Assembly (NCBI GenBank): GCA_020632135.1
Contig: JACKGC010000001.1
Coordinates: 308,241-372,240 of the forward strand
DNA: 64,000 nt
Origin: Candidatus Nomurabacteria bacterium
Lineage (GTDB): Bacteria > Patescibacteriota > Minisyncoccia > Phycocordibacterales > UBA918
Reading direction: 5' to 3'
Position numbers and translations under genes: made by a program
The notes under the pieces: generated by a model
What the model saw: only the letters and a program-made list of their open reading frames with translations
The model's database searches: none
What the model was told of the DNA's origin: nothing
Shown: piece after piece, positions 2,883-63,901 of the stretch
Position numbering within the stretch: the first letter of the stretch is position 1
Layout: each line of letters starts with the position of its first letter

Positions 2883-5462
2883 CTACTCTTTTTCAATCAC
2901 CACTGACTCCTTTGGTGAACGCTCCAAGAGCGCTGTTCCAATAAAGAGCAGACCAATACCGAGGAACGTAACGATCCGCCAGACCGTTTCCATTACCCAC
3001 ACATCGACGAGACCAAGACGCAAGACCACCGCTGCCAGGAGCAGGACACCAACTCGCTTGTAGACCGCATTCTCTTGAGTCCGTCCAATGCTGTATGCAA
3101 CCAGTCCGACCACCGTGTAGACAAAGAGCGCAATTGTTACCGCCACAGCATCGAACACAAACACTGTTTGGCTCATCACCCACACGAGACAGAATACTAA
3201 GATACCCGCAACGCCGTAGAGGATATTGGCGGCTTGCTGTAGCACCTCAACTGCTTCCGCAGCCACATTTCGACGATAGTGCAGCAGCGACGTACCCAAG
3301 ACAAAGAGCACCGTAATGGCTGCATACACCCCGACCGCATCAATACTTAGAAGGCCATCGTGCCAGCCCGTGAAGGGAAGTGAATCAATCAGCATGATAA
3401 TTGGGACAACCAGGGCAGCGAGCATCGCTACTACGCGCCCAACACTCATCCGTGCCAGCATGAGCACACTCACCACCACGTACGTAACAAAGAGGAAACT
3501 CACTGCCGACACCACTCGCTCTTCATCTCCTGAGAGCAGGGCCGACCAGACCGTACTCAAGAACATAAAACCGTACCCAAGGAATACCCACGCGAGCGCA
3601 TACGAAATAGTTTGCATAACACCCTCGTGCGCATGACCGCGCGCTCGCATCCAGTAGACACAGCCCACACTCGCCACTGTTACCGAGAAGAGTACGCTCG
3701 CAAAGAACGACTGGTGCCAAATACCTGAGCGCCACGCGCTCTCCGTCAGTGCCGACAACGCCAGGAAGGTCGGCACGATCAAACTAAAACTTGCCCCGAT
3801 TAGCCAATTGGCCCTTGGCACCACCGTGGTGAGATAGCCGATGATGATCACAGCTACACCAAGCGTCAGGAAGGTATCGGTAAAGACGGGTTCCCAGCCG
3901 CCGCGCAGCGCATACGCTATCACCGAACAGGTACCGATCACAAAGCCATACCACACCACCAAATGCGTCGCCGCGATCGAACGCAACCAGTTGATATCCT
4001 GCCAAGCCGGCTGTCGGAGTACATACACCACTGCTACACCTAAGCTCAAAATTACACTGAGTACACCAAGTGCCTCTCTGTGTAACACACCCCCTTGCCA
4101 GGCACTACTCGCGAGATCATTCGATCCCAGAAGTAGTGGGATCACAAAGAGCAGCGCACCGACCATCACGGTGCGCTGTACGGTTGCAAGCTTCAGTGCT
4201 AAGACGTAGATCGCTAAGACCTCGATCGCATAGGCAATGGTCAACACAAAGCCGTCGAATAATTCTGCCGTACCAAGGAGGATACACGCCAAACTAAAGA
4301 CCGCATACAGTGAAACGGCATCCGCATGTGCGTTTCGTTGATACAGTATATAGCCCACGAGCGCTGTGATAGTAGCAGCCACAAACAGCGCTAAAGCTGG
4401 GAAGAGTGCTACTGCCATAGCGTAACCAATGAACTGTAGCGACACCACCACGAGTGTCACTACATCAAGTACCACCGGGCGCTCGGTACGCATGATGCTG
4501 ACGGTCGTACTTGCAAAGAATAGGATCGAGAAGATGATGACAAAGAACCAAGTGGTCAGGTCGCTCAGTACTGATTCCTGATAGATCAAGAATACGTGTT
4601 GCGCTGTTCCAAACGAAAGGAGTAGTGCAACCGAACGCCACGCAGTAAAGAAGACCACCATGAGAAAACCTGCAGAGAGCAAAAAGAGGTAGGAGAGGAG
4701 CAGTATTTCTGATGGATCAACCTGCTTGATCAAGAATGGCACCAGAAGACCTGCAAGGGCTGCAGTGGTAGCGAGCCATTCGGTCTTGGTCTTGACTGCC
4801 ACCAACACCGTGTACGCGATACTGCCTACCATCAATAGAAAGGCAAGTGGAGCAGCGAGAATCGGTACCGTAAATGCAAACTGCGATGCTACCACCGTGC
4901 CCAAGAACACGGCGGTGCCAAGCGTGGTCAAGACCACATACTGAGTACCCTCAGTGGTACGACGCCAATACCCGACAACATAAACAGCCACCGCCAATAA
5001 GAGACCAAGCACAATACGCATGAACGGCGCGATCCAATTTTGCTCGATAGCGTAACTCACAAACCACACTGCACCCAAGAAAAAAATGATCGAACCAACC
5101 TTGATAAGGGTCTGTTCCCGAAACCATGTATATAAGAAGAACTCACTTGGTTCGGACATGACAGGAGTATATGCCGGTGGAGCAGTCGGGATCGGTCGCA
5201 ATTGCCCCCAGTTTACCGACTCCTCTGGTGGGTTAGACGTATCCGGTTCAGTTTCTGACCGTGGCAGTACTGACATCTCGGTCTCTGACTCAGGAGCTAC
5301 TGCGGGCTCAACAGCCGTCAGTACCGACTGCGTTACTGATACTGTCGAACGCTTATGCTTGGAAAGTTGCGCTACTTCTTGTTCTAAATTGGTTACCCGT
5401 TTACTGAGTGTCACTAACAGGTACACAGCATATACAAAAAACAAAAAACTGATAAATCCCAT
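2883..5462 (-). CDS. Large polytopic membrane protein (DUF2339-like architecture)
   Basis: 859 aa. It has an N-terminal TM, then a short coiled coil (VTNLEQEVAQL), a Pro/Glu-rich linker and more than 20 hydrophobic segments. The family assignment is from memory of the architecture only. Confidence 0.55.
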   Translation of the reverse strand: MGFISFLFFVYAVYLLVTLSKRVTNLEQEVAQLSKHKRSTVSVTQSVLTAVEPAVAPESETEMSVLPRSETEPDTSNPPEESVNWGQLRPIPTAPPAYTPVMSEPSEFFLYTWFREQTLIKVGSIIFFLGAVWFVSYAIEQNWIAPFMRIVLGLLLAVAVYVVGYWRRTTEGTQYVVLTTLGTAVFLGTVVASQFAFTVPILAAPLAFLLMVGSIAYTVLVAVKTKTEWLATTAALAGLLVPFLIKQVDPSEILLLSYLFLLSAGFLMVVFFTAWRSVALLLSFGTAQHVFLIYQESVLSDLTTWFFVIIFSILFFASTTVSIMRTERPVVLDVVTLVVVSLQFIGYAMAVALFPALALFVAATITALVGYILYQRNAHADAVSLYAVFSLACILLGTAELFDGFVLTIAYAIEVLAIYVLALKLATVQRTVMVGALLFVIPLLLGSNDLASSAWQGGVLHREALGVLSVILSLGVAVVYVLRQPAWQDINWLRSIAATHLVVWYGFVIGTCSVIAYALRGGWEPVFTDTFLTLGVAVIIIGYLTTVVPRANWLIGASFSLIVPTFLALSALTESAWRSGIWHQSFFASVLFSVTVASVGCVYWMRARGHAHEGVMQTISYALAWVFLGYGFMFLSTVWSALLSGDEERVVSAVSFLFVTYVVVSVLMLARMSVGRVVAMLAALVVPIIMLIDSLPFTGWHDGLLSIDAVGVYAAITVLFVLGTSLLHYRRNVAAEAVEVLQQAANILYGVAGILVFCLVWVMSQTVFVFDAVAVTIALFVYTVVGLVAYSIGRTQENAVYKRVGVLLLAAVVLRLGLVDVWVMETVWRIVTFLGIGLLFIGTALLERSPKESVVIEKE

Positions 5463-7660: not shown

Positions 7661-7680
7661 TTTGAAGAGGATGGTTTAAA

Positions 7681-7716
7681 AACAGCGGCCGGCCCCTTCG
7701 GGGCCGGCCGCTGTTT
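7681..7716 (+). terminator. Intrinsic terminator hairpin
   Basis: aacagcggccggcccc ttcg ggggccggccgctgtt: a perfect 16-bp stem with a UUCG loop, flanked by an A run and a T run. Confidence 0.8.
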
Positions 7717-7759
7717 TTAGTGCTACAATACTCTCATTACTCACGCTCATTTTATATCC

Positions 7760-10192: not shown

Positions 10193-10663
10193 ATGGCTGA
10201 AAGTAAAATCAGACCTAACTTATTTGCTGAGTTTGTCGAAGCACAAACCCTGCAGCCATACACCATCGTTCCGTCTGAGACAGTGCGGCAACTAACTGCC
10301 TGGATGGAAAACTACTACACCAACGGCCCACCTGACATTCGAAAGTGTGTCGAGACTTGGAAAAAGTTAGCCAATGCTTGCCAAAAATTTGACGACTTTG
10401 CCCATGTCGTAGAAACCATGAAAGATAAGGAGAGCGGGAACGAGAATCTCAAAGAATACAATTTCTTGAGTCGATACGCTGAACTGGCAAACTCTGACGA
10501 ACAGGTCTTCTTAGTGTTGCTGCACTTCTCTGCCTACCACCGCTTTTCTAAAGATGGGTACATCCGTCTTATATACACAATCGTTAGAGAAAAAGCAGTC
10601 ACTGTAATGGAGCAGAACACGAAGCTGATCCGGCCTATGCTCCACGCTTTCGGTTGCGCTTAA
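10193..10663 (+). CDS. Hypothetical protein (156 aa)
   Basis: Promoter TTTACA-N17-TATAAA (10121-10149) and SD AGGAG (10181-10185). The terminator is identical to that of the next gene. Start at the internal ATG 10193. Confidence 0.5.
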   Translation: MAESKIRPNLFAEFVEAQTLQPYTIVPSETVRQLTAWMENYYTNGPPDIRKCVETWKKLANACQKFDDFAHVVETMKDKESGNENLKEYNFLSRYAELANSDEQVFLVLLHFSAYHRFSKDGYIRLIYTIVREKAVTVMEQNTKLIRPMLHAFGCA

Positions 10664-10683
10664 CGTTCATCAAGACGGACCAT

Positions 10684-10717
10684 TTGCCACTCCCGCCCCG
10701 GCGGGAGTTTGTTTTAC
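10684..10717 (+). terminator. Terminator hairpin, copy 1 of an exact 34-nt repeat
   Basis: ttgccactcccgccccggcgggagtttgttttac, with stem ctcccgcc/ggcgggag followed by a T-rich tract. It is identical to 11080-11113. Confidence 0.75.
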
Positions 10718-10812
10718 TGACATGTTACACGGGAGGGGAGAACGTACAAAACATTGACATTGCCAAGAGAAATCTGTACTAATAGCTTTGGACTAATACT
10801 CAGGAGATTGAG

Positions 10813-11079
10813 ATGGCGACTATTGAAAGTTTGCTCAAATGGCAAAATGATCGAACGGAAGCGGTGAGAAAAGCAAAATCTGCTTCCATCCTTCTAAAAT
10901 CAGACCAAATACCATTCGACAGAATAATGGACGTGGTTTGGACAATGGAAATTGACCCTATAAAAGTGCTCGATCTAGTAGAAGAGGGTTGGCAGCTACT
11001 TCATATTGACACTGGAGACGAACTAGATGAAATGAATCCAGGTCCGATTCTTTATTTCGCCAAGCTACAAGAAGCTTGA
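10813..11079 (+). CDS. Small hypothetical acidic protein (88 aa)
   Basis: Promoter TTGACA-N17-TACTAA (10754-10782), SD AGGAG (10802-10806) and an identical 34-nt terminator immediately downstream. Confidence 0.5.
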   Translation: MATIESLLKWQNDRTEAVRKAKSASILLKSDQIPFDRIMDVVWTMEIDPIKVLDLVEEGWQLLHIDTGDELDEMNPGPILYFAKLQEA

Positions 11080-11113
11080 TTGCCACTCCCGCCCCGGCGG
11101 GAGTTTGTTTTAC
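11080..11113 (+). terminator. Terminator hairpin, copy 2 of the exact 34-nt repeat
   Basis: Identical in sequence to 10684-10717. Confidence 0.75.
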
Positions 11114-11120
11114 ACCTCTG

Positions 11121-11269
11121 TGAAACCAACCTCACTTTGGCGAGAGCATCCGCAGGCGCTGAGCCAGTCTTTCATTCCCTTAAAATTAAATAGGATGAAA
11201 GTCAGCGCTGAGGACGAAGTGAGATTCTGCTGAGAATCTCACGGTCGAGACAAGGTGAGGATGGTTTCA
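11121..11269. repeat. Intergenic foldback element E1 (multi-hairpin, closed by a 15-bp outer stem)
   Basis: Outer stem tgaaaccaacctcac (11121-11135) / gtgaggatggtttca (11255-11269) pairs 14/15. Inner hairpins include gtgagattc/gaatctcac. It carries the boxes GCATCCGCAGGCG and GAGGACG..GATTCT, which are shared with other elements. Confidence 0.6.
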
Positions 11270-11421
11270 TACACGGCTCAAAACGACTTGATTTTTACTC
11301 AAAATATGCTATTATCCTCCCAACCTAATTACAGGTTATTTATTCCGAATCGATGGTGCCACCGATGTTGCAAAACATATGAGTGGATCCACACGATCGA
11401 TTTCGTAACACAAAATACACT

Positions 11422-11688
11422 ATGCTATCAAAGCGAGTTAAAGAGAATGAAGTAAAGAAGACCCAGCGTCACGACAAGGACACCGGTTCACCTGAAGCGC
11501 AGGTTGCCCTCCTTACTCGTCAGATCGAAGAACTTTCTGCTCACCTACGTAAGCACAAGAAGGACTTCCACTCACGTCGCGGACTCCTTCAGATGGTGGC
11601 CAACCGCCGCAAGCATCTGAAGTATCTTCAGAAGAAAGATGAGAAGGCGTATGCTGCACTCATCAAGAAGCTTGGCCTCAAGGGTTAA
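11422..11688 (+). CDS. rpsO: 30S ribosomal protein S15
   Basis: [48 protein letters not shown] is typical of S15. Start at the internal ATG 11422 (88 aa). Confidence 0.9.
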
Positions 11689-11695
11689 TGCAAGA

Positions 11696-11730
11696 CAAAA
11701 ACTCGCACCATACTCTGGAGCGAGTTTTTG
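11696..11730 (+). terminator. rpsO terminator-like hairpin
   Basis: aaaaactcgc / gcgagttttt, a 10-bp stem with a 13-nt loop followed by a T run. Confidence 0.5.
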
Positions 11731-11764
11731 TTTTGCGGTATAGTGAAACGGAACTTCTGGTCTC

Positions 11765-11846
11765 GCTCATGCTTCCGTATTTGCGAGACTCAGCGGTTTC
11801 GGCTTCGCCTGCAAATGCTTCGCTACACAAACACGGAAGCATGAGC
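11765..11846. repeat. Intergenic foldback element E2
   Basis: Perfect 14-bp stem gctcatgcttccgt / acggaagcatgagc around a 54-nt interior. The reverse complement of the interior carries GCATTTGCAGGCG...GCTGAG, similar to E1. Confidence 0.6.
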
Positions 11847-11896
11847 TAGCGATGAACACTACACACAGAATCTTTTGAATTTTGTGTAGCGTTAAA

Positions 11897-11986
11897 AGGA
11901 GGGTGAAAGTCGCTGCGTAGGGAAACATCCGGAGCGACAATACCCGGAGCGAGGACGTTGATTCTCGCAGCGACTTTCACCCTCCT
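11897..11986. repeat. Intergenic foldback element A (21-bp perfect stem, 48-nt conserved loop)
   Basis: Stem aggagggtgaaagtcgctgcg (11897-11917) / cgcagcgactttcaccctcct (11966-11986). The loop tagggaaacatccggagcgacaatacccggagcgaggacgttgattct is 44/48 identical to the loop at 56086-56133. Confidence 0.75.
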
Positions 11987-12031
11987 AAAAATTTTCATAA
12001 TAGAAAACTTACAAAATTAATTTCCAAATTT

Positions 12032-12644: not shown

Positions 12645-12685
12645 GAGAAAGCGGGGCGCCCACGAAGTGGGCGCCCCGCTTTCTC
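12645..12685 (+). terminator. Intrinsic terminator hairpin
   Basis: gagaaagcggggcgccca / tgggcgccccgctttctc, a perfect 18-bp stem with a 5-nt loop. Confidence 0.75.
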
Positions 12686-43922: not shown

Positions 43923-43924
43923 GA

Positions 43925-43967
43925 GAATGAAAAAGGCCGGAAGCGAAGCTTCCGGCCTTTTTCATTC
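43925..43967. terminator. Bidirectional terminator hairpin
   Basis: Perfect 20-bp stem gaatgaaaaaggccggaagc / gcttccggcctttttcattc with a 3-nt loop. Confidence 0.8.
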
Positions 43968-44227
43968 TACATCTCATCTATATCATCAAAACTATCGAAA
44001 TCTACATCTTCAGCATCAGCCTCAAGTTCGTCATCGTCATCGTCCTCCTCTTCCTCCACTTCTTCATCCTCCTCGCTTTCATTAATATGCCCAAATCCTT
44101 CTACTTCATCATCAGAATCAACATTGCTGTCACCTACCTCATCAAGGAGATCATCATCCAAAGATGCGTCTTCATCGTCCGGATTTTCTTCCAACTCTTC
44201 TTCATCGTCAGTTCGAAAGTAGATCAT
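43967..44227 (-). CDS. Small, extremely acidic protein (86 aa)
   Basis: More than half of the residues are D or E (e.g. EEDEEVEEEEDDDDDELEADAEDVDFDSFDDIDEM). A TATAAT lies upstream and a terminator downstream. Confidence 0.45.
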   Translation of the reverse strand: MIYFRTDDEEELEENPDDEDASLDDDLLDEVGDSNVDSDDEVEGFGHINESEEDEEVEEEEDDDDDELEADAEDVDFDSFDDIDEM

Positions 44228-45561: not shown

Positions 45562-46545
45562 TTATTCATTACTAATACTAATATGACCATATGCATCGGG
45601 GCTGGCGGTGCGGCCGCGCGGGGTGCGCTCAAGGAGGCCGTGGCGGATGAGATAGGGTTCTATAACGTCCTCTATAGTGGAGGGTTCTTCACCGGTGGCG
45701 GCTGCGATAGTATTGAGTCCAACCGGGCCACCGTTAAATTTATGAATGATCACTTCCAGTACAGCCCGGTCGGGTTTACCTAAGCCAAGTGAATCAATCT
45801 CTAGGAGATCAAACGTTTTTTCTACAATTGCATTGGTCAACTCACCTCCTTCAAGTTGCGCGAGGTCTCGACAGCGCTTGAGCAGGTAGTTAGCGGTGCG
45901 CGGTGTTGCTCGACAGCGTTTGGCGATCTTTGCAACAAGTTCTTGCGTTGGTGACATGCCAAGCAGCTCGGCTGACCGGGTAAGGATGGTCGCGATTTCA
46001 TCATCACTATAAAACTCAAGCCGGAAGGTTCCGCCCGAGAAGCGACTACGGAGTGGTGAGGAGAGTAGGGAAATTCGGGTGGTGGCGGCGACCATGGTAA
46101 AGGGTGGCAACTCAAGCTGCACTGTGCGGGCTGACGGTCCTTTGCCGATGATTATATCAAGTACCCCTGACTCCATAGCAGGGTAGAGCACCTCCTCAAT
46201 GCTCTTACTAAGGCGATGGATCTCATCAATGAAGAGCACATCACCAGGGGAGAGGTTGGTAAGGATGGCCGCTAAGTCACCTACTCGCTCAATTGCTGGG
46301 CCAGAAGTGATCTTCATGTTCGTGCCGAGGGTCTTTGAGACCAAGTTGGCGAGAGTGGTTTTTCCGAGTCCTGGTGGACCATAAAGCAGAATGTGCTCGG
46401 CAGCATGACCACGTTCTTTTGCGGCAGTTAAAAGAATACGTAAGTTTTCTTTGATCTTTTCTTGCCCAACATACTCTTCCCAGGTTTGTGGTCGAAGGGT
46501 ACGGTCGAGGTTGCTGGCGTCGTCGCGGGTGATGTTATTGGCCAT
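45562..46545 (-). CDS. ruvB: Holliday junction branch migration ATPase RuvB
   Basis: [12 protein letters not shown], Walker [12 protein letters not shown], Walker [10 protein letters not shown] and a C-terminal winged helix. Confidence 0.95.
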
Positions 46546-46691
46546 AGGTATGGCTAGTATAGCAAAATATACGCTGTAAAAGCATCAGTTGAACTTCAAG
46601 CAAGTGCTATCTCTCACACTAAACGTGGCCTTTTTTAAGGCAGGGTGCTCGATATCTTACTCACTTCAAACCCAAAAGCACGGTAAAGGTG

Positions 46692-46719
46692 TTGACAAAA
46701 TTTTAAAGTATGCTAGTAT
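46692..46719 (+). promoter_or_regulatory. Sigma70-type promoter (TTGACA-N16-TAGTAT) with no downstream long ORF
   Basis: TTGACA at 46692-46697 and TAGTAT at 46714-46719. It points at the foldback element and the terminator at 47013-47043. Confidence 0.55.
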
Positions 46720-46776
46720 ATCTAACAATTGATGTTCTCCATCACACCAATGTGGGTGTGTGTTTATTTTGAGGCA

Positions 46777-46924
46777 ATTCCAGACGATAACTCTCTAAGC
46801 AACTTTGTATGCGTTGCGAGGGGTTCTATGGCACTCACCACTGAGTGAGAGCGCTGTATACTTACTTAGCGCGGCATGCGACTTTCAATGCGGAAGCTTT
46901 GCTTAGAGAGTTATATTCTGGAAT
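46777..46924. repeat. Intergenic foldback element E6 (26-bp closing stem with a 2-nt internal mismatch)
   Basis: Stem attccagacgataactctctaagcaa / ttgcttagagagttatattctggaat around a 96-nt interior containing ctcac..gtgag and gcgct..agcgc hairpins. Confidence 0.6.
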
Positions 46925-47012
46925 GAGCGTTGATGAGCTGACAGTAGCATAAAAAAAGCCACTGCGCTCTTGACCGAAAAACATTTCACTCTTGAAACTC
47001 AATAAAAAGTAA

Positions 47013-47043
47013 AAAGCGGCGGGCCCTTCGGGCCCGCCGCTTT
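47013..47043. terminator. Bidirectional terminator hairpin
   Basis: aaagcggcgggccc ttcg ggcccgccgcttt. Confidence 0.8.
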
Positions 47044-47044
47044 A

Positions 47045-48817
47045 TTACACCACGTGTTTTAGAAAATCATCATCACTCACTATATCTGAACCGGGTACAT
47101 TTTGTTGTACAGGTAAAGTGGGGTTGGTGGCAAGGTGGTAGGGGAGTTCAATTACTCGCTCGAGCTCTTTCATTGATGTCATACCATGGAGAACTTTTTC
47201 AATCCCGTCTTCTAGCATGGTCGGAATACCCTGTGGTCTGGCTGCTTCAAGAATAACATGCTCACGCGGGTCGCGGATCACCACCTCTTCGACTGCTTCA
47301 TCCATAATGATTCCTTCAAAGATACCCACTCGTCCTTTAAAGCCGGTGCCACCACATACAGGGCAACCAACCGGGCGATAGAGGGTGATGCTTGGTGGTA
47401 CAGGTACTGGGTGTGGGTGTTTTGACATGATGTACTGAATGAGTTGCGCATCTTCAGATGTGGCCGCTTCAGGTGCTTTACAATCCTCACATAACACACG
47501 CACCAGGCGTTGACCCATGATGATATTGATAGCGGTACCCATTACTCGCGGGTCGATCCCGAGGTCAATGAGGCGCGGGAAGCCACCAACCGCGCTATTG
47601 GTGTGGAGAGTGGAGAACACTAGGTGACCTGTTTGGGCAGCATGGATAGCGGTCTCAGCAACTTCTCGATCACGGATCTCACCGATCATGATCACATCAG
47701 GGTCCTGGCGAAGAATGGCACGCAGGCCCGAAGCAAAGGTGTAGTCATCTCCAGTCTGAGTTTGGACGATCCCCTCGAGTTTGTATTCTACCGGATTCTC
47801 GATAGTGATGATCTTAACTCCTTCATGATGCACTTGCTGTAGGTACGCATAGAGAGCGGTGGTTTTACCAGAACCTGTTGGGCCAGTAGTGATCACTAGC
47901 CCGTTTGGTTTTTTAAGTTCCCGCAAGAGCGCAGCTTCAATATGCTTATTCAACTTAATACGATCGAGTGAGAAACTCGCAACCGTTGGGTCCAAAAGAC
48001 GCATTACGATCGACTCACCGAGCGCACCTGGGATGACTGAAGATCGCACCTCTACCTCGCGCTCACCAGTGTTGAAGGTGAAGCGACCATCTTGCGCCTC
48101 AGCGCGGGAATTGAGAACCATACCCGAAAGTAGTTTCAAACGAGAGATCATCCGGTTGAAAATATATGACTCAAGGTCAGCGACATCGTGGAGTACACCA
48201 TCAAAACGGTACCGGAGGCGGATACCGCTATCTTCTGGTTCGATGTGGATGTCTGATGCGCCTAAGGCGAGCCCGCCAGCAAAGATCAATTCAAGGGTTT
48301 CTGAGATACGACGTGACTTATTGGCGGTGCGAATATCCATCAGGATGCGTGGCACATCTTCCACCTGCTTGATCTCAGTGGTGAGGCGCTGGATGTCGGC
48401 AGCGCTGATCTCAAATACCCCCTTCTTCTCAGCGGTGGAGGAGGTTACATCAGCGTAGCGTTTCCAGGCATACTCAAGGCTGGCTTGAGAACACATGTAT
48501 ACGAGCAGGGTATAGCGGCGACCTTCGAGGGTTTGCAACAACGCTTGCGTCTTTGGGTTACTTGGATTCTTTGCTGCCACAGAAAGAGTATTGCGATGGA
48601 GCTCAAAACCAACTATCTCTGCTTCTTTGGCTTTTTCTTCTGGGATCGCCGCGATCGCTTCAGGGTTGATGGTGTACCCTTGTAAATTTATGTACTCAAA
48701 ACCTAATTTTGGAGCAGTCATTTGAATGACCTGCTCTTCTTCACGAGCGCGCAGATCAGCAATGCGAGTGTCTGAGCGACTGTCATCGAACGTAACCATA
48801 TATGCAAATGATAGCAT
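47045..48817 (-). CDS. GspE/PilB-family type II secretion / type IV pilus assembly ATPase
   Basis: Walker A GPTGSGKTT, GEIRD, HLVFSTLHTN and a tetracysteine motif (CEDC...CPVCGGTGFKGR). The start may be 48799. Confidence 0.85.
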   Translation of the reverse strand: MLSFAYMVTFDDSRSDTRIADLRAREEEQVIQMTAPKLGFEYINLQGYTINPEAIAAIPEEKAKEAEIVGFELHRNTLSVAAKNPSNPKTQALLQTLEGRRYTLLVYMCSQASLEYAWKRYADVTSSTAEKKGVFEISAADIQRLTTEIKQVEDVPRILMDIRTANKSRRISETLELIFAGGLALGASDIHIEPEDSGIRLRYRFDGVLHDVADLESYIFNRMISRLKLLSGMVLNSRAEAQDGRFTFNTGEREVEVRSSVIPGALGESIVMRLLDPTVASFSLDRIKLNKHIEAALLRELKKPNGLVITTGPTGSGKTTALYAYLQQVHHEGVKIITIENPVEYKLEGIVQTQTGDDYTFASGLRAILRQDPDVIMIGEIRDREVAETAIHAAQTGHLVFSTLHTNSAVGGFPRLIDLGIDPRVMGTAINIIMGQRLVRVLCEDCKAPEAATSEDAQLIQYIMSKHPHPVPVPPSITLYRPVGCPVCGGTGFKGRVGIFEGIIMDEAVEEVVIRDPREHVILEAARPQGIPTMLEDGIEKVLHGMTSMKELERVIELPYHLATNPTLPVQQNVPGSDIVSDDDFLKHVV

Positions 48818-52458: not shown

Positions 52459-52514
52459 GGTGGGCGGACAAATAAAAAAACGGCGGATGCCGTTTTTTTA
52501 TTTGTCCGCCCACC
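52459..52514. terminator. Perfect 26-bp palindrome (bidirectional terminator) incorporating the 3' end of tRNA-Lys
   Basis: ggtgggcggacaaataaaaaaacggc ggat gccgtttttttatttgtccgcccacc. The right arm overlaps the tRNA acceptor 3' strand. Confidence 0.75.
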
Positions 52515-52577
52515 AGGGCTCGAACCTGGGACCCTCAGCTTAAAAGGCTGCTGCTCTACCGACTGAGCTATGGGCGG
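52505..52577 (-). tRNA. tRNA-Lys (anticodon UUU)
   Basis: Manual cloverleaf: acceptor CCGCCCA/TGGGCGG, D arm GCTC-AGTCGGTA-GAGC, anticodon loop CTTTTAA, T arm CCAGG-TTCGAGC-CCTGG, discriminator A. CCA is not encoded. Confidence 0.85.
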
Positions 52578-56741: not shown

Positions 56742-56781
56742 AGTGTATGCATTGTACCTGAGATACGCTTCCTATCCAAAG

Positions 56782-56879
56782 CAATCAACCATAGGCCTGT
56801 TTTTCGCACACTCCGCTGTTGCGGACTCTCTCGAGCACGTAACCCCCGCGGATGCTCAAAACAGGCCTATGGTTGATTG
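56782..56879. repeat. Intergenic foldback element Y (22-bp perfect stem, 54-nt interior)
   Basis: Stem caatcaaccataggcctgtttt / aaaacaggcctatggttgattg. The reverse complement of the interior shares TCCGCGGGG and CGGAGYGTGYGA with element X. Confidence 0.7.
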
Positions 56880-56947
56880 ATTGACCAAAACCCTTGCCTT
56901 TTTGGGCTTCCTACGGTACAGTAGGCCCACTCAAATTTATAGTAAAT

Positions 56948-57217
56948 ATGCCAATCACTAAAGGAGCAGCCAAGGCCCATCGTCAGTCAGAGCGCAAGAA
57001 GGTGTTCAACATCCGTCGTAAGAGCGCAATGAAGGACGCTGAGAAGGCCATCGCAAAGGCAGTAGCCGCTGGAGATGAGAAGAAGGCAAAAGAACTTCTT
57101 CCAACCGCGTACAAAGCGATTGACAAGGCAGCCAAGCGTGGTGTCATCAAAGACAACACTGCGGCACGCAAGAAGTCTCGCATCACTGCCCGCGTGAAGA
57201 TCACCGCGAAGAAATAA
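56948..57217 (+). CDS. rpsT: 30S ribosomal protein S20
   Basis: MPITKGAAKAHRQSERKKVFNIRRKSAMK... is the typical S20 N-terminus (89 aa). Start at the internal ATG 56948. Confidence 0.9.
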   Translation: MPITKGAAKAHRQSERKKVFNIRRKSAMKDAEKAIAKAVAAGDEKKAKELLPTAYKAIDKAAKRGVIKDNTAARKKSRITARVKITAKK

Positions 57218-57250
57218 ATAAAACCGCCCATCAAATGGGCGGTTTTATTT
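57216..57250. terminator. Bidirectional terminator hairpin
   Basis: aaataaaaccgccca tcaaa tgggcggttttattt, a perfect 15-bp stem. Confidence 0.8.
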
Positions 57251-57266
57251 ATTCTTCAATAATAGG

Positions 57267-58422: not shown

Positions 58423-60021
58423 ATGAAAATTTACACAAGTACTACCTTGAAGCAGTGGGTGGCTGTGGTCGTCGGGGTGGCAGTCGCCGTTTTGGTGCTA
58501 GGTGGATTTTCTGGTGCGTTGGGGCAGGGGTCGGAAGTTACCGAGCAATCGGTGGACAGATCTAAAAGAGTGTCACTTTCTACAAGTAGTATTCCAGTAC
58601 GAGTATCGGGAGTGGTAGAGGCAGCGCAAAGTACCATTGTGTATGCGCAAACAGCTGGAGTGGTGACCGACTTGTTGGTTCGTGAAGGAGGTGAGGTGGC
58701 AGCTGGTACGGTCTTGGTGCGCCAAGCTCTGCCAGTAGCAGAAGCGCGGCTGGTGTTTTCGGCCGCCGAGCGGGAACTTAGTGGGCTCGAACAGTCATTA
58801 CAAACTGAGTTGCGAAGTGGGGGAGCTTTGCAAGCTGAGCACCGATCCCGATCGGCGGCCGACATCGCGAGTTTGCGCGCAGTGAGTACTGACACGCGTG
58901 TCACAGAAGCGGTTACTGCCCTTACAACGACAGCGGCAGAGAGTACGCTCTCGATCATTGGGTCGATCAACTACATCAATAATCACCGCTATCTTTTTTC
59001 AGCTACCGGTCTGGAATTGTACGAAGCTGTAGTGGCTGACTTGTATGGCTCAGTGCCAGATTATTTTCAAAGTGGGGTGGTTAATGGGAATGCTGGTGTG
59101 GTGGATCTGCAGTCAGTATTGCAAGCAGTGCAAACCACGGAAGATCCAGTTGCGTTAGAAACGTTCACGTTTTTACTCGAAGGTCAGCTGGCTGCACTTA
59201 CCGCTTTGTACGAGACCGCTGAGTCAGACGTGTTTGATCGACAAGCTTCGTACGTTGACTCGGCACTACAGTCTGAGTACCTCACCATGCGTGAGTCGGT
59301 GTTACTGACCGCAGCAGCACTCCAAACTAGTCGCACTGCATATCAGCAGGAGCTTGATGGTGTATTGGAGGATGAGGTATTGCAAAACACCACTGTAACG
59401 GTGAGTGCGATTGATGCGGAACTGGCATCTCTACAGGCGCAGTATGCTGCGCGGCTCGCTGCGCAGTCAGATCGAGTGGCTGCAGCTGGGGTGGCTGTGG
59501 TAGCGGCCGAGCTATCGCTCGGCCGCCTAACCGCCCCCTTCTCAGGCGTGGTCTCAAAGGTCTTCGTTGATGAAGGTGAGTATGTGGTGCCTGGCACACC
59601 ACTCCTGTCGCTTGTTGGTGCAGGCGCGCGTGAGTTTGAAGCGACAGTGCCGGCTTACTTGCTGCCACATGTGGCAGTTGGTCAGGCGTTTGTGGTCGAT
59701 AGTGTGGTAATGGGGTATGTCGATCGGTTTAGTACTATTTCTACGGGTGGTAGTGGGACAGTAATCATAGCGTTGTCAGGTGATGGACTGCCGCTAGTTG
59801 GCAGCAGTCTCACTGGTTCACTGCTTGTATCGGCCCAAGACGGAGTGTATCGAGTCCCGCGTTCGCACGTGCACTATGATGCTGATGGGTTGTATGTGCA
59901 GTATGTTGATGGTACGAGCGCGCGGGCACAAGTGCTCTACGACGCAGGTCAGGAGTTGTTTATCACGGTCACTAAGATGAATACTGCTTCTCTCGTGCCA
60001 GCGGTAAGTATCGCGCTGTAG
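58423..60021 (+). CDS. Efflux RND periplasmic adaptor (HlyD/MFP family)
   Basis: N-terminal TM, a long alpha-helical hairpin region, and the lipoyl/beta-barrel motif LTAPFSGVVSKVFVDEGEYVVPGTPLLSL. Confidence 0.75.
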   Translation: MKIYTSTTLKQWVAVVVGVAVAVLVLGGFSGALGQGSEVTEQSVDRSKRVSLSTSSIPVRVSGVVEAAQSTIVYAQTAGVVTDLLVREGGEVAAGTVLVRQALPVAEARLVFSAAERELSGLEQSLQTELRSGGALQAEHRSRSAADIASLRAVSTDTRVTEAVTALTTTAAESTLSIIGSINYINNHRYLFSATGLELYEAVVADLYGSVPDYFQSGVVNGNAGVVDLQSVLQAVQTTEDPVALETFTFLLEGQLAALTALYETAESDVFDRQASYVDSALQSEYLTMRESVLLTAAALQTSRTAYQQELDGVLEDEVLQNTTVTVSAIDAELASLQAQYAARLAAQSDRVAAAGVAVVAAELSLGRLTAPFSGVVSKVFVDEGEYVVPGTPLLSLVGAGAREFEATVPAYLLPHVAVGQAFVVDSVVMGYVDRFSTISTGGSGTVIIALSGDGLPLVGSSLTGSLLVSAQDGVYRVPRSHVHYDADGLYVQYVDGTSARAQVLYDAGQELFITVTKMNTASLVPAVSIAL

Positions 60022-63320: not shown

Positions 63321-63584
63321 AATCTGAATAATTTAAAAACTATGTTTACCTTAACTACAAAAGATCTTTCAGAAACAGTCACTCTTAAGAATCTGCCGAC
63401 ACTACGTCAGACTTTCTTTGTCGGCTCAGTCGTTATCATGCTTGGGTATGTGCTCGAGGATGTCTACCCAATTACCCACTACTTGCCGTTGTTACCAGCG
63501 ATCGGCCTGATGGTCTCGGCGCTGACGGGCTTTTGTCCCATGGCGTACTTCTTGCAGAAGCTGCCATGGAACAAGGTGGAATAG
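63318..63584 (+). CDS. DUF2892 (YgaP-like) small membrane protein
   Basis: Two TM helices and the C-terminal motif LTGFCPMAYFL typical of DUF2892. The start is uncertain (63318 or 63342). Confidence 0.6.
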   Translation: MNLNNLKTMFTLTTKDLSETVTLKNLPTLRQTFFVGSVVIMLGYVLEDVYPITHYLPLLPAIGLMVSALTGFCPMAYFLQKLPWNKVE

Positions 63585-63615
63585 AAAGAGCGCGGCCTTT
63601 GGCCGCGCTCTTTCT
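63583..63615. terminator. Bidirectional terminator hairpin
   Basis: agaaagagcgcggcc ttt ggccgcgctctttct, a perfect 15-bp stem. Confidence 0.8.
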
Positions 63616-63901
63616 ATAGTTTCGCAAATCGTCCGATCAATTTACTCATTTTATTACCCCGCCCAGTGAGGCCATAGTAGTGCACACGAGAATCATGTGG
63701 GCACGAAATACGCTTGATCAGTTTCTCTGCCTCCAGTTCGTGAAGGCGACTCGAGAGGGTCGCGGTGTTAATGGTGAGTGATTCTTGCAGGTCTGAAAAA
63801 CCGCGCGGCTTGTCGGCAAGAGCGTGCAAAATCACTAACATATGTCGCTTACTAAGGAATGTAAGGATCTTAGTGGCAGGGCAGACAGCACCTTTTTTCA
63901 T
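63614..63901 (-). CDS. HxlR-family winged-helix transcriptional regulator
   Basis: CPATKILTFLSKRHMLVILHAL...RGFSDLQESL.INTATLSSRLHELEAEKLIKR......VHYYGLTGRG. The start may be 63967. Confidence 0.7.
   Translation of the reverse strand: MKKGAVCPATKILTFLSKRHMLVILHALADKPRGFSDLQESLTINTATLSSRLHELEAEKLIKRISCPHDSRVHYYGLTGRGNKMSKLIGRFAKL

Follow-up and report, generated by a model that had tools for sequence, protein, structure and literature searches.

A structured small RNA gene candidate divergent from ruvB defines a new RNA family in Paceibacteria/Minisyncoccia-type Patescibacteria

The 64,000-nucleotide (nt) stretch of DNA analysed here, referred to as the window (contig JACKGC010000001.1 of assembly GCA_020632135.1, Candidatus Nomurabacteria bacterium), probably carries an independent gene for a structured small RNA between the minus-strand genes encoding RuvB and a PilB/GspE-type ATPase. 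The RNA would represent a new family of the class Paceibacteria/Minisyncoccia, and a protein-binding role is suggested by the way in which it is conserved. An initial annotation of the window had pointed to an orphan promoter-to-terminator unit at this place as a candidate non-coding RNA gene, and had proposed conservation and covariation in relatives as a check. The proposal has been borne out, as promoter, fold and plus-strand termination signals are conserved and the paired positions covary. To judge from these sequences, the unit combines the promoter, the termination signals, the covarying fold and the non-coding character of an independent structured small RNA gene. The family, absent from Rfam 15 and from the literature searched, is previously undescribed.

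The centre of the unit is a foldback at 46777-46924, which was recovered exactly where it had been annotated and which is not a chance hairpin but a member of a structured-RNA family. Its two 26-nt arms are 92% complementary and lie 96 nt apart, and no inverted repeat of this grade appeared in 100 shuffles of the window. The 321-nt unit has a folding energy of -124.6 kcal/mol (z = -7.9) and the 152-nt core one of -63.8 kcal/mol (z = -6.8), the latter unmatched in 200 shuffles. The arms form a helix, P1, which in the clade of the window is followed by a joiner of 3 nt, a long irregular rod and a hairpin, P4, the whole constituting a three-way junction. In a long type of the RNA, which is the commoner one in the family and has equivalent Px, P3a and P3b helices in its rod, P1 is followed by an additional hairpin, P2, and the junction becomes a four-way one resembling a cloverleaf, with P4 directly against the 3' strand of P1.

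Consensus structures were derived from MAFFT/RNAalifold alignments made independently of the covariance model (R1) described below. The 15 sequences of the window clade share 54 pairs, with 95.9% of the cells paired and 22 pairs changed on both sides. None of 500 shuffles was as good, and pairing drops to 37-48% when the partners are slid against each other. Double changes are found in 15 of the 26 pairs of helices 2-4 in this clade. The 34 sequences of the long type share 52 pairs, of which 38 show double changes (again 0 of 500 shuffles as good), including eight of the nine pairs of P4. Both independent alignments have 91-96% of their cells paired and collapse when the partners are slid. A model-fitted alignment of 100 sequences shows double changes in 29 of 38 pairs, and 17-18 of the 25 pairs of P1 carry compensatory changes across the family. 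Conservation is highest in helical parts, namely the core of P1 (CUCUAAG/CUUAGAG) and a segment of the rod (AGGAC...UGG / CUG...UAUCCU) which comprises a 1x2 internal loop, a tandem U·G/G·U and an adjoining invariant G-C pair. The apical loops and P2 are free to vary, and no long single-stranded segment is conserved. As the core sequence of P1 changes with compensation in the more distant members, it is the helix that is kept rather than its sequence.

RuvB places the window in the Patescibacteria. The best genome matches are an uncultured freshwater bin (82%) and a Candidatus Kaiserbacteria genome (78%), followed at lower identity by Nomurabacteria, Zambryskibacteria, Ryanbacteria and 'Minisyncoccia'. 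By BLAST the foldback was seen upstream of ruvB in several of the best-matching genomes, and the core is 82.5% identical in the nearest one. The model R1, built from 14 sequences, matches all 17 of the closest Patescibacteria RuvB loci, four of which had been absent from model building, and gives weak matches in two more distant loci (L023 and L026), and the RNA family was found in 19 Patescibacteria genomes. Another locus (L065) holds a further divergent member, recognised by eye and at 17.6 bits, while R1 has no match in the Firmicutes, Chloroflexi and Proteobacteria loci. When metagenome contigs were scanned with a pattern of the two P1 arm cores, at least 120 loci were obtained. Among the 120 matches listed, 117 are strong R1 matches of 70-130 bits, a 118th (L186, RNA at 4980-5148) is a divergent member of 36 bits with a different interior, and the remaining two (L105 and L146) look like chance. 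The same pattern had no match in viral contigs, and the RNA is single-copy in the window. The Patescibacteria loci which lack the RNA (L022 and L028) also lack the adjacency of the ATPase gene and ruvB. So far, the family is restricted to Paceibacteria/Minisyncoccia-type Patescibacteria.

No known family accounts for the unit. At the gathering thresholds of Rfam 15, the window contains only one tRNA (52505-52577). With E values of up to 10, the region 46500-47100 gives only partial, generic terminator-like matches to unrelated small RNAs, all at 47013-47043. The Rfam models for 6S RNA, the signal recognition particle (SRP) RNA, RNase P RNA, transfer-messenger RNA (tmRNA) and Y RNA do not match the unit, ARAGORN finds no tRNA or tmRNA gene in 46400-47200, and R1 does not match E. 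coli ssrS. Thirteen relatives gave nothing at gathering scores, and one of the loci (L017) nothing meaningful at E values of up to 10. The Rfam scan proposed in the initial annotation, which had itself recognised no tmRNA, RNase P RNA, 6S or SRP signature, agrees with it. In the literature searched on RNA motifs, 6S RNA, non-coding RNA and ruvB in Patescibacteria/Parcubacteria, neither a description of this RNA family nor any lineage-specific non-coding RNA for Patescibacteria was found. The '6S' of one paper (PMC8321541) is only a name for the SRP RNA, and non-coding RNA, ruvB and pilB go unmentioned in the Minisyncoccus metatranscriptome paper.

The strand from which the RNA is made can be read from several signs. 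Read in plus orientation, G·U pairs exceed A·C pairs by 134 to 41 in P1 and by 203 to 27 in the interior, i.e. by about 5:1 overall, and in the window clade UG/GU pairs are conserved at alignment columns 41/98, 44/94 and 55/82. Of 132 distinct core sequences, 127 fold more stably as the plus strand than as the reverse complement (mean difference 13 kcal/mol; Wilcoxon p = 6e-23), the values for the window being -63.8 and -52.9 kcal/mol. A U-run follows P1 directly in 65 of 131 loci, and a separate hairpin with a U-run occurs within 160 nt in 48, so that one or the other plus-strand termination signal is present in 101 of the 131 loci compared to 7 of 131 shuffled controls. Clean plus-strand terminators are present in L018 and L065. 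A promoter of the form TTGACA-16/17-TGnTAnnnT is found upstream of the fold, on the RNA strand and 5-158 nt before P1, in nearly all of the ~136 homologous loci. Taken together, the bias towards G·U, the stability of the fold and the conserved promoter and termination signals indicate that the RNA is made from the plus strand of the window.

The near-consensus promoter annotated in the window (TTGACA-N16-TAGTAT) is present precisely as described. It scores 10/12 plus TG and is, on either strand of the 64 kb, the sole site combining TTGACA with a TG-extended -10 box, which would give the RNA gene the strongest sigma-70-type promoter of the window. Transcription is expected to start at about 46726. 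The strong terminator to which this unit was assigned calls for a qualification. The hairpin is real, but a terminator scan calls it for the minus strand (tail TTACTTTTTA), it begins 2 nt past the stop codon of the pilB/gspE-like gene, and its plus-strand tail is TTTATTA only. With the better T-run on the minus strand, directly past the ATPase stop, it is therefore a bidirectional terminator that primarily serves the pilB/gspE-like gene. It likely also provides the 3' end of the RNA, which predicts a transcript of about 320 nt. In some species, where the -10 box lies 5-11 nt from P1 and a U-run follows P1, the primary transcript would consist essentially of the core. In all these cases, the start and end of the RNA, its abundance and its processing are predictions. 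The coordinates of the features are collected in Table 1.

Table 1. Features of the RNA gene and of its surroundings, in window coordinates.
Feature	Position	Strand	Remarks
RNA-gene promoter	46692-46719	+	-35 TTGACA 46692-46697, 16-nt spacer, TG-extended -10 TGcTAGTAT 46711-46719
Small open reading frame	46729-46848	+	39 codons from TTG 46729 or 38 from ATG 46732; runs into the stem
Small 5' leader hairpin CACACC-AAUGUG-GGUGUG	46743-46760	+	predicted
Conserved structured core	46775-46926	+	three-way junction closed by P1; covariance model R1, 97.4 bits
P1 5' arm AUUCCAGACGAUAACUCUCUAAGCAA	46777-46802	+	core CUCUAAG nearly invariant in the family
Long irregular rod	46806-46881	+	conserved G·U pairs; family motif GAGG..UGG / CUG..CCUUAG
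Px/P3a	46806-46822 with 46863-46881	+	helix of the rod
P3b	46824-46832 with 46853-46860	+	helix of the rod
Apical hairpin CUCAC/GUGAG	46834-46838 with 46845-46849	+	tip of the rod
P4 hairpin CUUUC-AAUGC-GGAAG	46882-46896	+	directly after the rod, 2 nt before the P1 3' arm; invariant within the clade
P1 3' arm UUGCUUAGAGAGUUAUAUUCUGGAAU	46899-46924	+	pairs with 46777-46802
Candidate TG-extended -10 of a ruvB-sense promoter, TGCTACTGT	46941-46949	-	consensus match; TGCTAyaGT in the clade
Direct repeats CTCTTGA	46967-46973 and 46989-46995		22 bp apart; CTTGACC / TTGAAt in relatives
Terminator hairpin	47013-47043	both	perfect 14-bp GC-rich stem, 3-nt loop; bidirectional
ruvB (RuvB)	45562-46545	-	followed by yebC/TACO1, then ruvC
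T2SSE/MshEN ATPase, PilB/GspE type	47045-48817	-	590 aa; convergent, 3' of the RNA gene

The unit occupies an intergenic stretch (46546-47044) in which no open reading frame (ORF) of 60 aa or more exists. As annotated, its neighbours ruvB and the gspE-like gene both lie on the minus strand, and the genes around it encode RuvB, YebC, RuvC, the T2SSE ATPase and TsaE. In every locus with enough flanking sequence, ruvB is divergent from the RNA, and the pilB/gspE-like gene is almost always convergent downstream. L186, in which the ATPase gene is found downstream of the ruvB operon instead of beside the RNA, keeps the RNA divergent from ruvB. The start codon of ruvB is a median of 20 nt away from the -35 box of the RNA, and in about 40 of 123 loci the two overlap, ATGTCAA being the complement of TTGACAT. 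The overlap was verified in L008 (2857-2863), where no other in-frame start exists. In that locus and about 40 others, one 7-bp stretch is thus both start codon and promoter element. With its start so tight against, or overlapping, the -35 box, ruvB would have to be transcribed from within or from beyond the RNA gene.

Candidate promoters for such transcription can be recognised. In the window clade, TGCTAyaGT occurs 20-28 nt after P1 and is conserved in about 13 of 17 members while its flanks diverge. If active, it is predicted to start ruvB at ~46934 in the window, with a leader of about 390 nt that runs antisense to the RNA over the latter's full length, and the two convergent promoters would be about 210 bp apart. 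The L008 clade carries the minus-strand TG-extended -10 motif TGCTATAAT 13 nt before P1, so that the promoters there are face to face and the predicted starts overlap by about 11 nt, within unstructured leader only. The L019 clade has a minus-strand motif, (G/A)TGAATAAT, just after the RNA. The predicted overlap of RNA and ruvB transcript is accordingly complete in the window and L019 clades and about 11 nt in the L008 clade. The direct repeats of Table 1 keep a fixed spacing from the candidate minus-strand -10 box in the clade (17 + 17 nt) and are possibly regulator sites at about -38 and -60 of the putative ruvB promoter; in some relatives the first repeat (CTTGACC) is located in the loop of the terminator hairpin. 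As a -35 box, CTTGACC was rejected, having the wrong orientation on the minus strand, 22 nt from the -10 box, and no proper -10 box on the plus strand. A promoter-like site on the minus strand at 46728-46700 (TTGTTA-17-TAAAAT) is unconserved in the clade and was likewise set aside.

The initial annotation had reasoned that the neighbouring genes could not be the target of the promoter. This is correct with regard to co-transcription, but misses the physical interlock with the promoter and leader of ruvB on the opposite strand. As the promoter of the RNA overlaps the start or leader of ruvB, and candidate promoters of ruvB are located within the RNA gene or past it, this geometry suggests that transcription of the RNA and of ruvB-yebC-ruvC would interfere mutually, possibly through promoter occlusion, polymerase collision or a sense/antisense duplex sensitive to RNase III. 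Such interference would explain why the order of the RNA gene and ruvB is frozen.

The main rival to an independent RNA gene takes this interlock to be the whole function, i.e. a pure cis-antisense or interference device for ruvB-yebC-ruvC, excludon-like and devoid of any function in trans, in which the fold serves only stability or termination. The linkage to ruvB in all ~136 loci, which persists even where the pilB/gspE-like gene has moved, speaks for it, as do the overlap of the -35 box with the ruvB start codon in about a third of the loci, the candidate ruvB promoters placed face to face in the RNA leader of the L008 clade and past the RNA in the window and L019 clades, and the fact that P1 with its U-run doubles as a terminator in about half of the loci. 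However, the core is equally conserved in the L008 clade, where the overlap is confined to about 11 nt of unstructured leader, and the ribosome-binding site of ruvB is never covered by the RNA. The rod moreover retains its AGGAC/UAUCC 1x2 loop, its tandem G·U and its invariant G-C pair where RuvB identity is down to only 55-65%, a detail exceeding the needs of stability or termination. A pure interference device therefore appears rather improbable, although it deserves to be weighed before all other alternatives.

Several points weigh against an independent RNA gene and must be set beside the evidence in its favour. Linkage to ruvB without exceptions is a trait of cis-acting or antisense elements more than of housekeeping RNAs that stand alone. 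Helices that are nearly perfect over 26-30 bp are normally substrates of RNase III, and the mature form may hence differ from the one described. In the metagenome set, the P1 core (CUCUAAG/CUUAGAG) looks more invariant than it is, as the search pattern required those letters, and its near-invariance may in part stem from constraints on the opposite strand, i.e. the leader or promoter of ruvB. The plus-strand U-tract of the terminator in the window (UUUAUUA) is weak, and the minus-strand promoters are consensus matches only.

Within the reading as an independent RNA gene, it is helical surfaces that are conserved and not a single-stranded seed, which favours a stable protein-binding RNA over a small RNA acting by seed pairing. 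The product is consequently most likely a stable, abundant RNA bound by protein. A more far-reaching proposal, put forward here tentatively, is that it forms a class-wide abundant ribonucleoprotein of the Paceibacteria/Minisyncoccia, either as a stand-in for 6S or Y-type RNA, or as a junction RNA coupling growth-rate-type transcription to the Holliday-junction machinery (ruvB-yebC-ruvC).

That the RNA is an outright analogue of 6S RNA, a decoy resembling an open promoter by which the sigma-70 RNA polymerase is sequestered, is unlikely. The core of 150-190 nt, the long closing stem, the second irregular stem, the hairpin on the 3' side and the very strong promoter would all suit such a decoy, as would the fact that no canonical 6S RNA is seen in the 64-kb window. 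In contrast, the Rfam 6S model has no match at E values of up to 10 in the window region or in L017, R1 fails on ssrS in the reverse comparison, and a junction with covarying Px helices takes the place of a large open bubble.

Less probable still is a functional structure on the minus strand, i.e. a cis element or processing site in the ruvB leader or in a pilB-ruvB co-transcript, to which the plus-strand promoter would be incidental. Both flanking genes are indeed on the minus strand, two clades have candidate minus-strand promoters upstream of the fold, and the complement also folds well overall. Yet G·U pairs are about five times as frequent as A·C in plus orientation, and the conserved ones would on the minus strand become conserved A·C mismatches. 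The plus strand is the stabler one in nearly all cores (127/132), plus-strand promoter and terminators are conserved, and in the L008 clade the ruvB promoter sits between the fold and ruvB, which leaves the fold outside that leader.

The small reading frame which starts 6-13 nt past the predicted transcription start and runs into the stem was present as annotated, from ATG 46732 over 38 codons, as was the lack of any ORF of 60 aa or more. It had been taken as a possible leader-peptide-type arrangement, an idea which does not survive comparison. Start, length and peptide of the 38/39-codon frame all vary among close relatives, six of which have the frame closed by stops with no start upstream of the core, and the interior segments differ in length by 1-2 nt between relatives, i.e. 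by indels that are not multiples of three. Since the frame is unconserved and no plus-strand gene follows downstream of the unit, there is no sign of a leader-peptide arrangement; the frame does not appear to belong, as a coding sequence, to the functional unit, and a small protein or leader-peptide attenuator is highly improbable. In the leaders of close relatives, hairpins of unrelated sequence occur at the same place as the small 5' hairpin of the window, as judged by eye from the clade alignment, without statistics. An inverted repeat acting at the DNA level, such as a remnant of a miniature inverted-repeat transposable element, a cruciform, a protein-binding palindrome or a chance hairpin, can be dismissed with similar assurance: despite its long and nearly perfect arms, and although further assemblies of this organism are interrupted at or in the repeats, the element is single-copy in 64 kb, syntenic across a class, in the same context in ~136 loci and without a match in viral contigs, and asymmetric G·U pairs and covariation extend to interior helices outside the repeat.

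Some further features of the window were recorded. The genome contains many perfect GC-rich hairpins with 3-nt loops and flanking A- or T-runs that look like bidirectional terminators (2816-2866, 7677-7719, 12645-12685, 43924-43968, 47013-47043, 57213-57253 and 63581-63617). In four other public assemblies with an identical RuvB (L001-L004), the contigs end in the terminator palindrome (~47030-47040) or in the foldback (~46817), most likely where assemblers broke at inverted repeats. An 86-aa ORF downstream of ruvC (43967-44227, minus strand) is extremely acidic (D/E-rich), has no Pfam match and is also annotated as a gene in a second assembly of this organism. The region 10660-12030 (about 1.4 kb) has almost no long ORF and several long hairpins (11690-11736; 11762-11849, with 22-nt arms; 11897-11986, with perfect 21-nt arms), as well as a GC-rich palindrome, ACTCCCGCCCCGGCGGGAGT, that occurs twice (10689-10708 and 11085-11104). 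Further non-coding RNAs may be located in this region, for which Rfam gives nothing at gathering scores. A perfect 26-bp hairpin (52459-52514) abuts the only tRNA gene of the window, located on the minus strand. Inverted repeats are also found at 56779-56882 (50-nt arms, 76% complementarity, 4-nt loop) and, inside an ORF, at 58750-58871 (26-nt arms, 70-nt loop).

The Patescibacteria (CPR, for candidate phyla radiation) make up a large share of bacterial diversity and have tiny genomes with few recognisable regulators. The RNA described here adds a new family to the RNA databases and to the annotation of these genomes. For organisms that cultivation is now beginning to reach (Minisyncoccus), it offers a candidate regulator or abundant RNA-protein complex. 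The locus is also a natural example of overlapping opposed promoters, the logic of which is open to reporter assays.

Several known systems can be set aside. A riboswitch or attenuator does not fit a unit that has no plus-strand gene downstream and an unconserved leader ORF, and a retron msr-msd does not fit a neighbourhood in which the downstream gene encodes the convergent T2SSE ATPase and no reverse transcriptase gene is found. A search by eye for SRP domain IV, K-turn, GNRA-receptor, hammerhead, sarcin-ricin and S15-type motifs yielded none that was convincing. The UGG/CUG tandem wobble beside a G-C pair resembles the G·U/G-C motif of S15, but its context is wrong and the likeness was not adopted.

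6S RNA binds the sigma-70 holoenzyme and is a template for product RNAs, and in E. coli it has a hairpin on the 3' side of the central region. Like 6S RNA (ssrS; RF00013), the RNA of the window is stand-alone, strongly promoted and about 150-190 nt long; its two ends pair into a long closing stem, another long stem is irregular, a small hairpin lies 3' of the middle, and no single-stranded seed is conserved. The two match in neither direction, be it by sequence or by structure, and the RNA is strictly linked to ruvB, as 6S genes are not known to be. Whereas 6S RNA is defined by a closing stem, a large single-stranded central bubble and a terminal stem (PMC3847290), the centre here is a compact three- or four-way junction with covarying Px pairs across it, and in the window clade the 5' side of the would-be bubble is only about 3 nt long.

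The bacterial Y RNAs (YrlA) and tRNA-like cloverleafs share with the new family a long stem formed from the two ends and a multi-helix module. In the long type, P4 abuts the 3' strand of P1 with 0 nt between them, as the T arm of a tRNA abuts the acceptor stem. Unlike in Y RNAs, there is no Rfam match to Y RNA or tRNA and no conserved T-loop, D-loop or bulged Ro-binding helix, and no rsr (Ro) gene was seen in the loci examined.

The excludon concept, developed in Listeria, describes face-to-face promoters and cis-antisense RNAs. As in such loci, the RNA gene is encoded on the strand opposite to a neighbouring operon, within or up against the leader and promoter of that operon, and the predicted overlapping or convergent promoters imply that expression of the RNA and of the operon should be mutually exclusive. 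The differences are that the overlaps here are predicted and that the antisense partner is a compact RNA whose covarying, tertiary-type fold is deeply conserved. Where an excludon relies on complementarity alone, without selection on the fold, covariation in the interior and strand-specific conservation of G·U pairs are found here. Small RNA genes placed divergently from a functionally linked gene are known from gcvB/gcvA, oxyS/oxyR and sgrS/sgrR. The new family has the same conserved back-to-back placement with one particular neighbour, but that neighbour is ruvB, followed by a YebC/TACO1-family gene, instead of a classical transcription factor, and there is no evident seed. Orphan structured RNAs discovered by comparative genomics, such as raiA and OLE (PMC5737381, PMC11109978), are likewise defined by covariation and restricted to one lineage. 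The CPR family described here differs from them in its fold and in its lineage.

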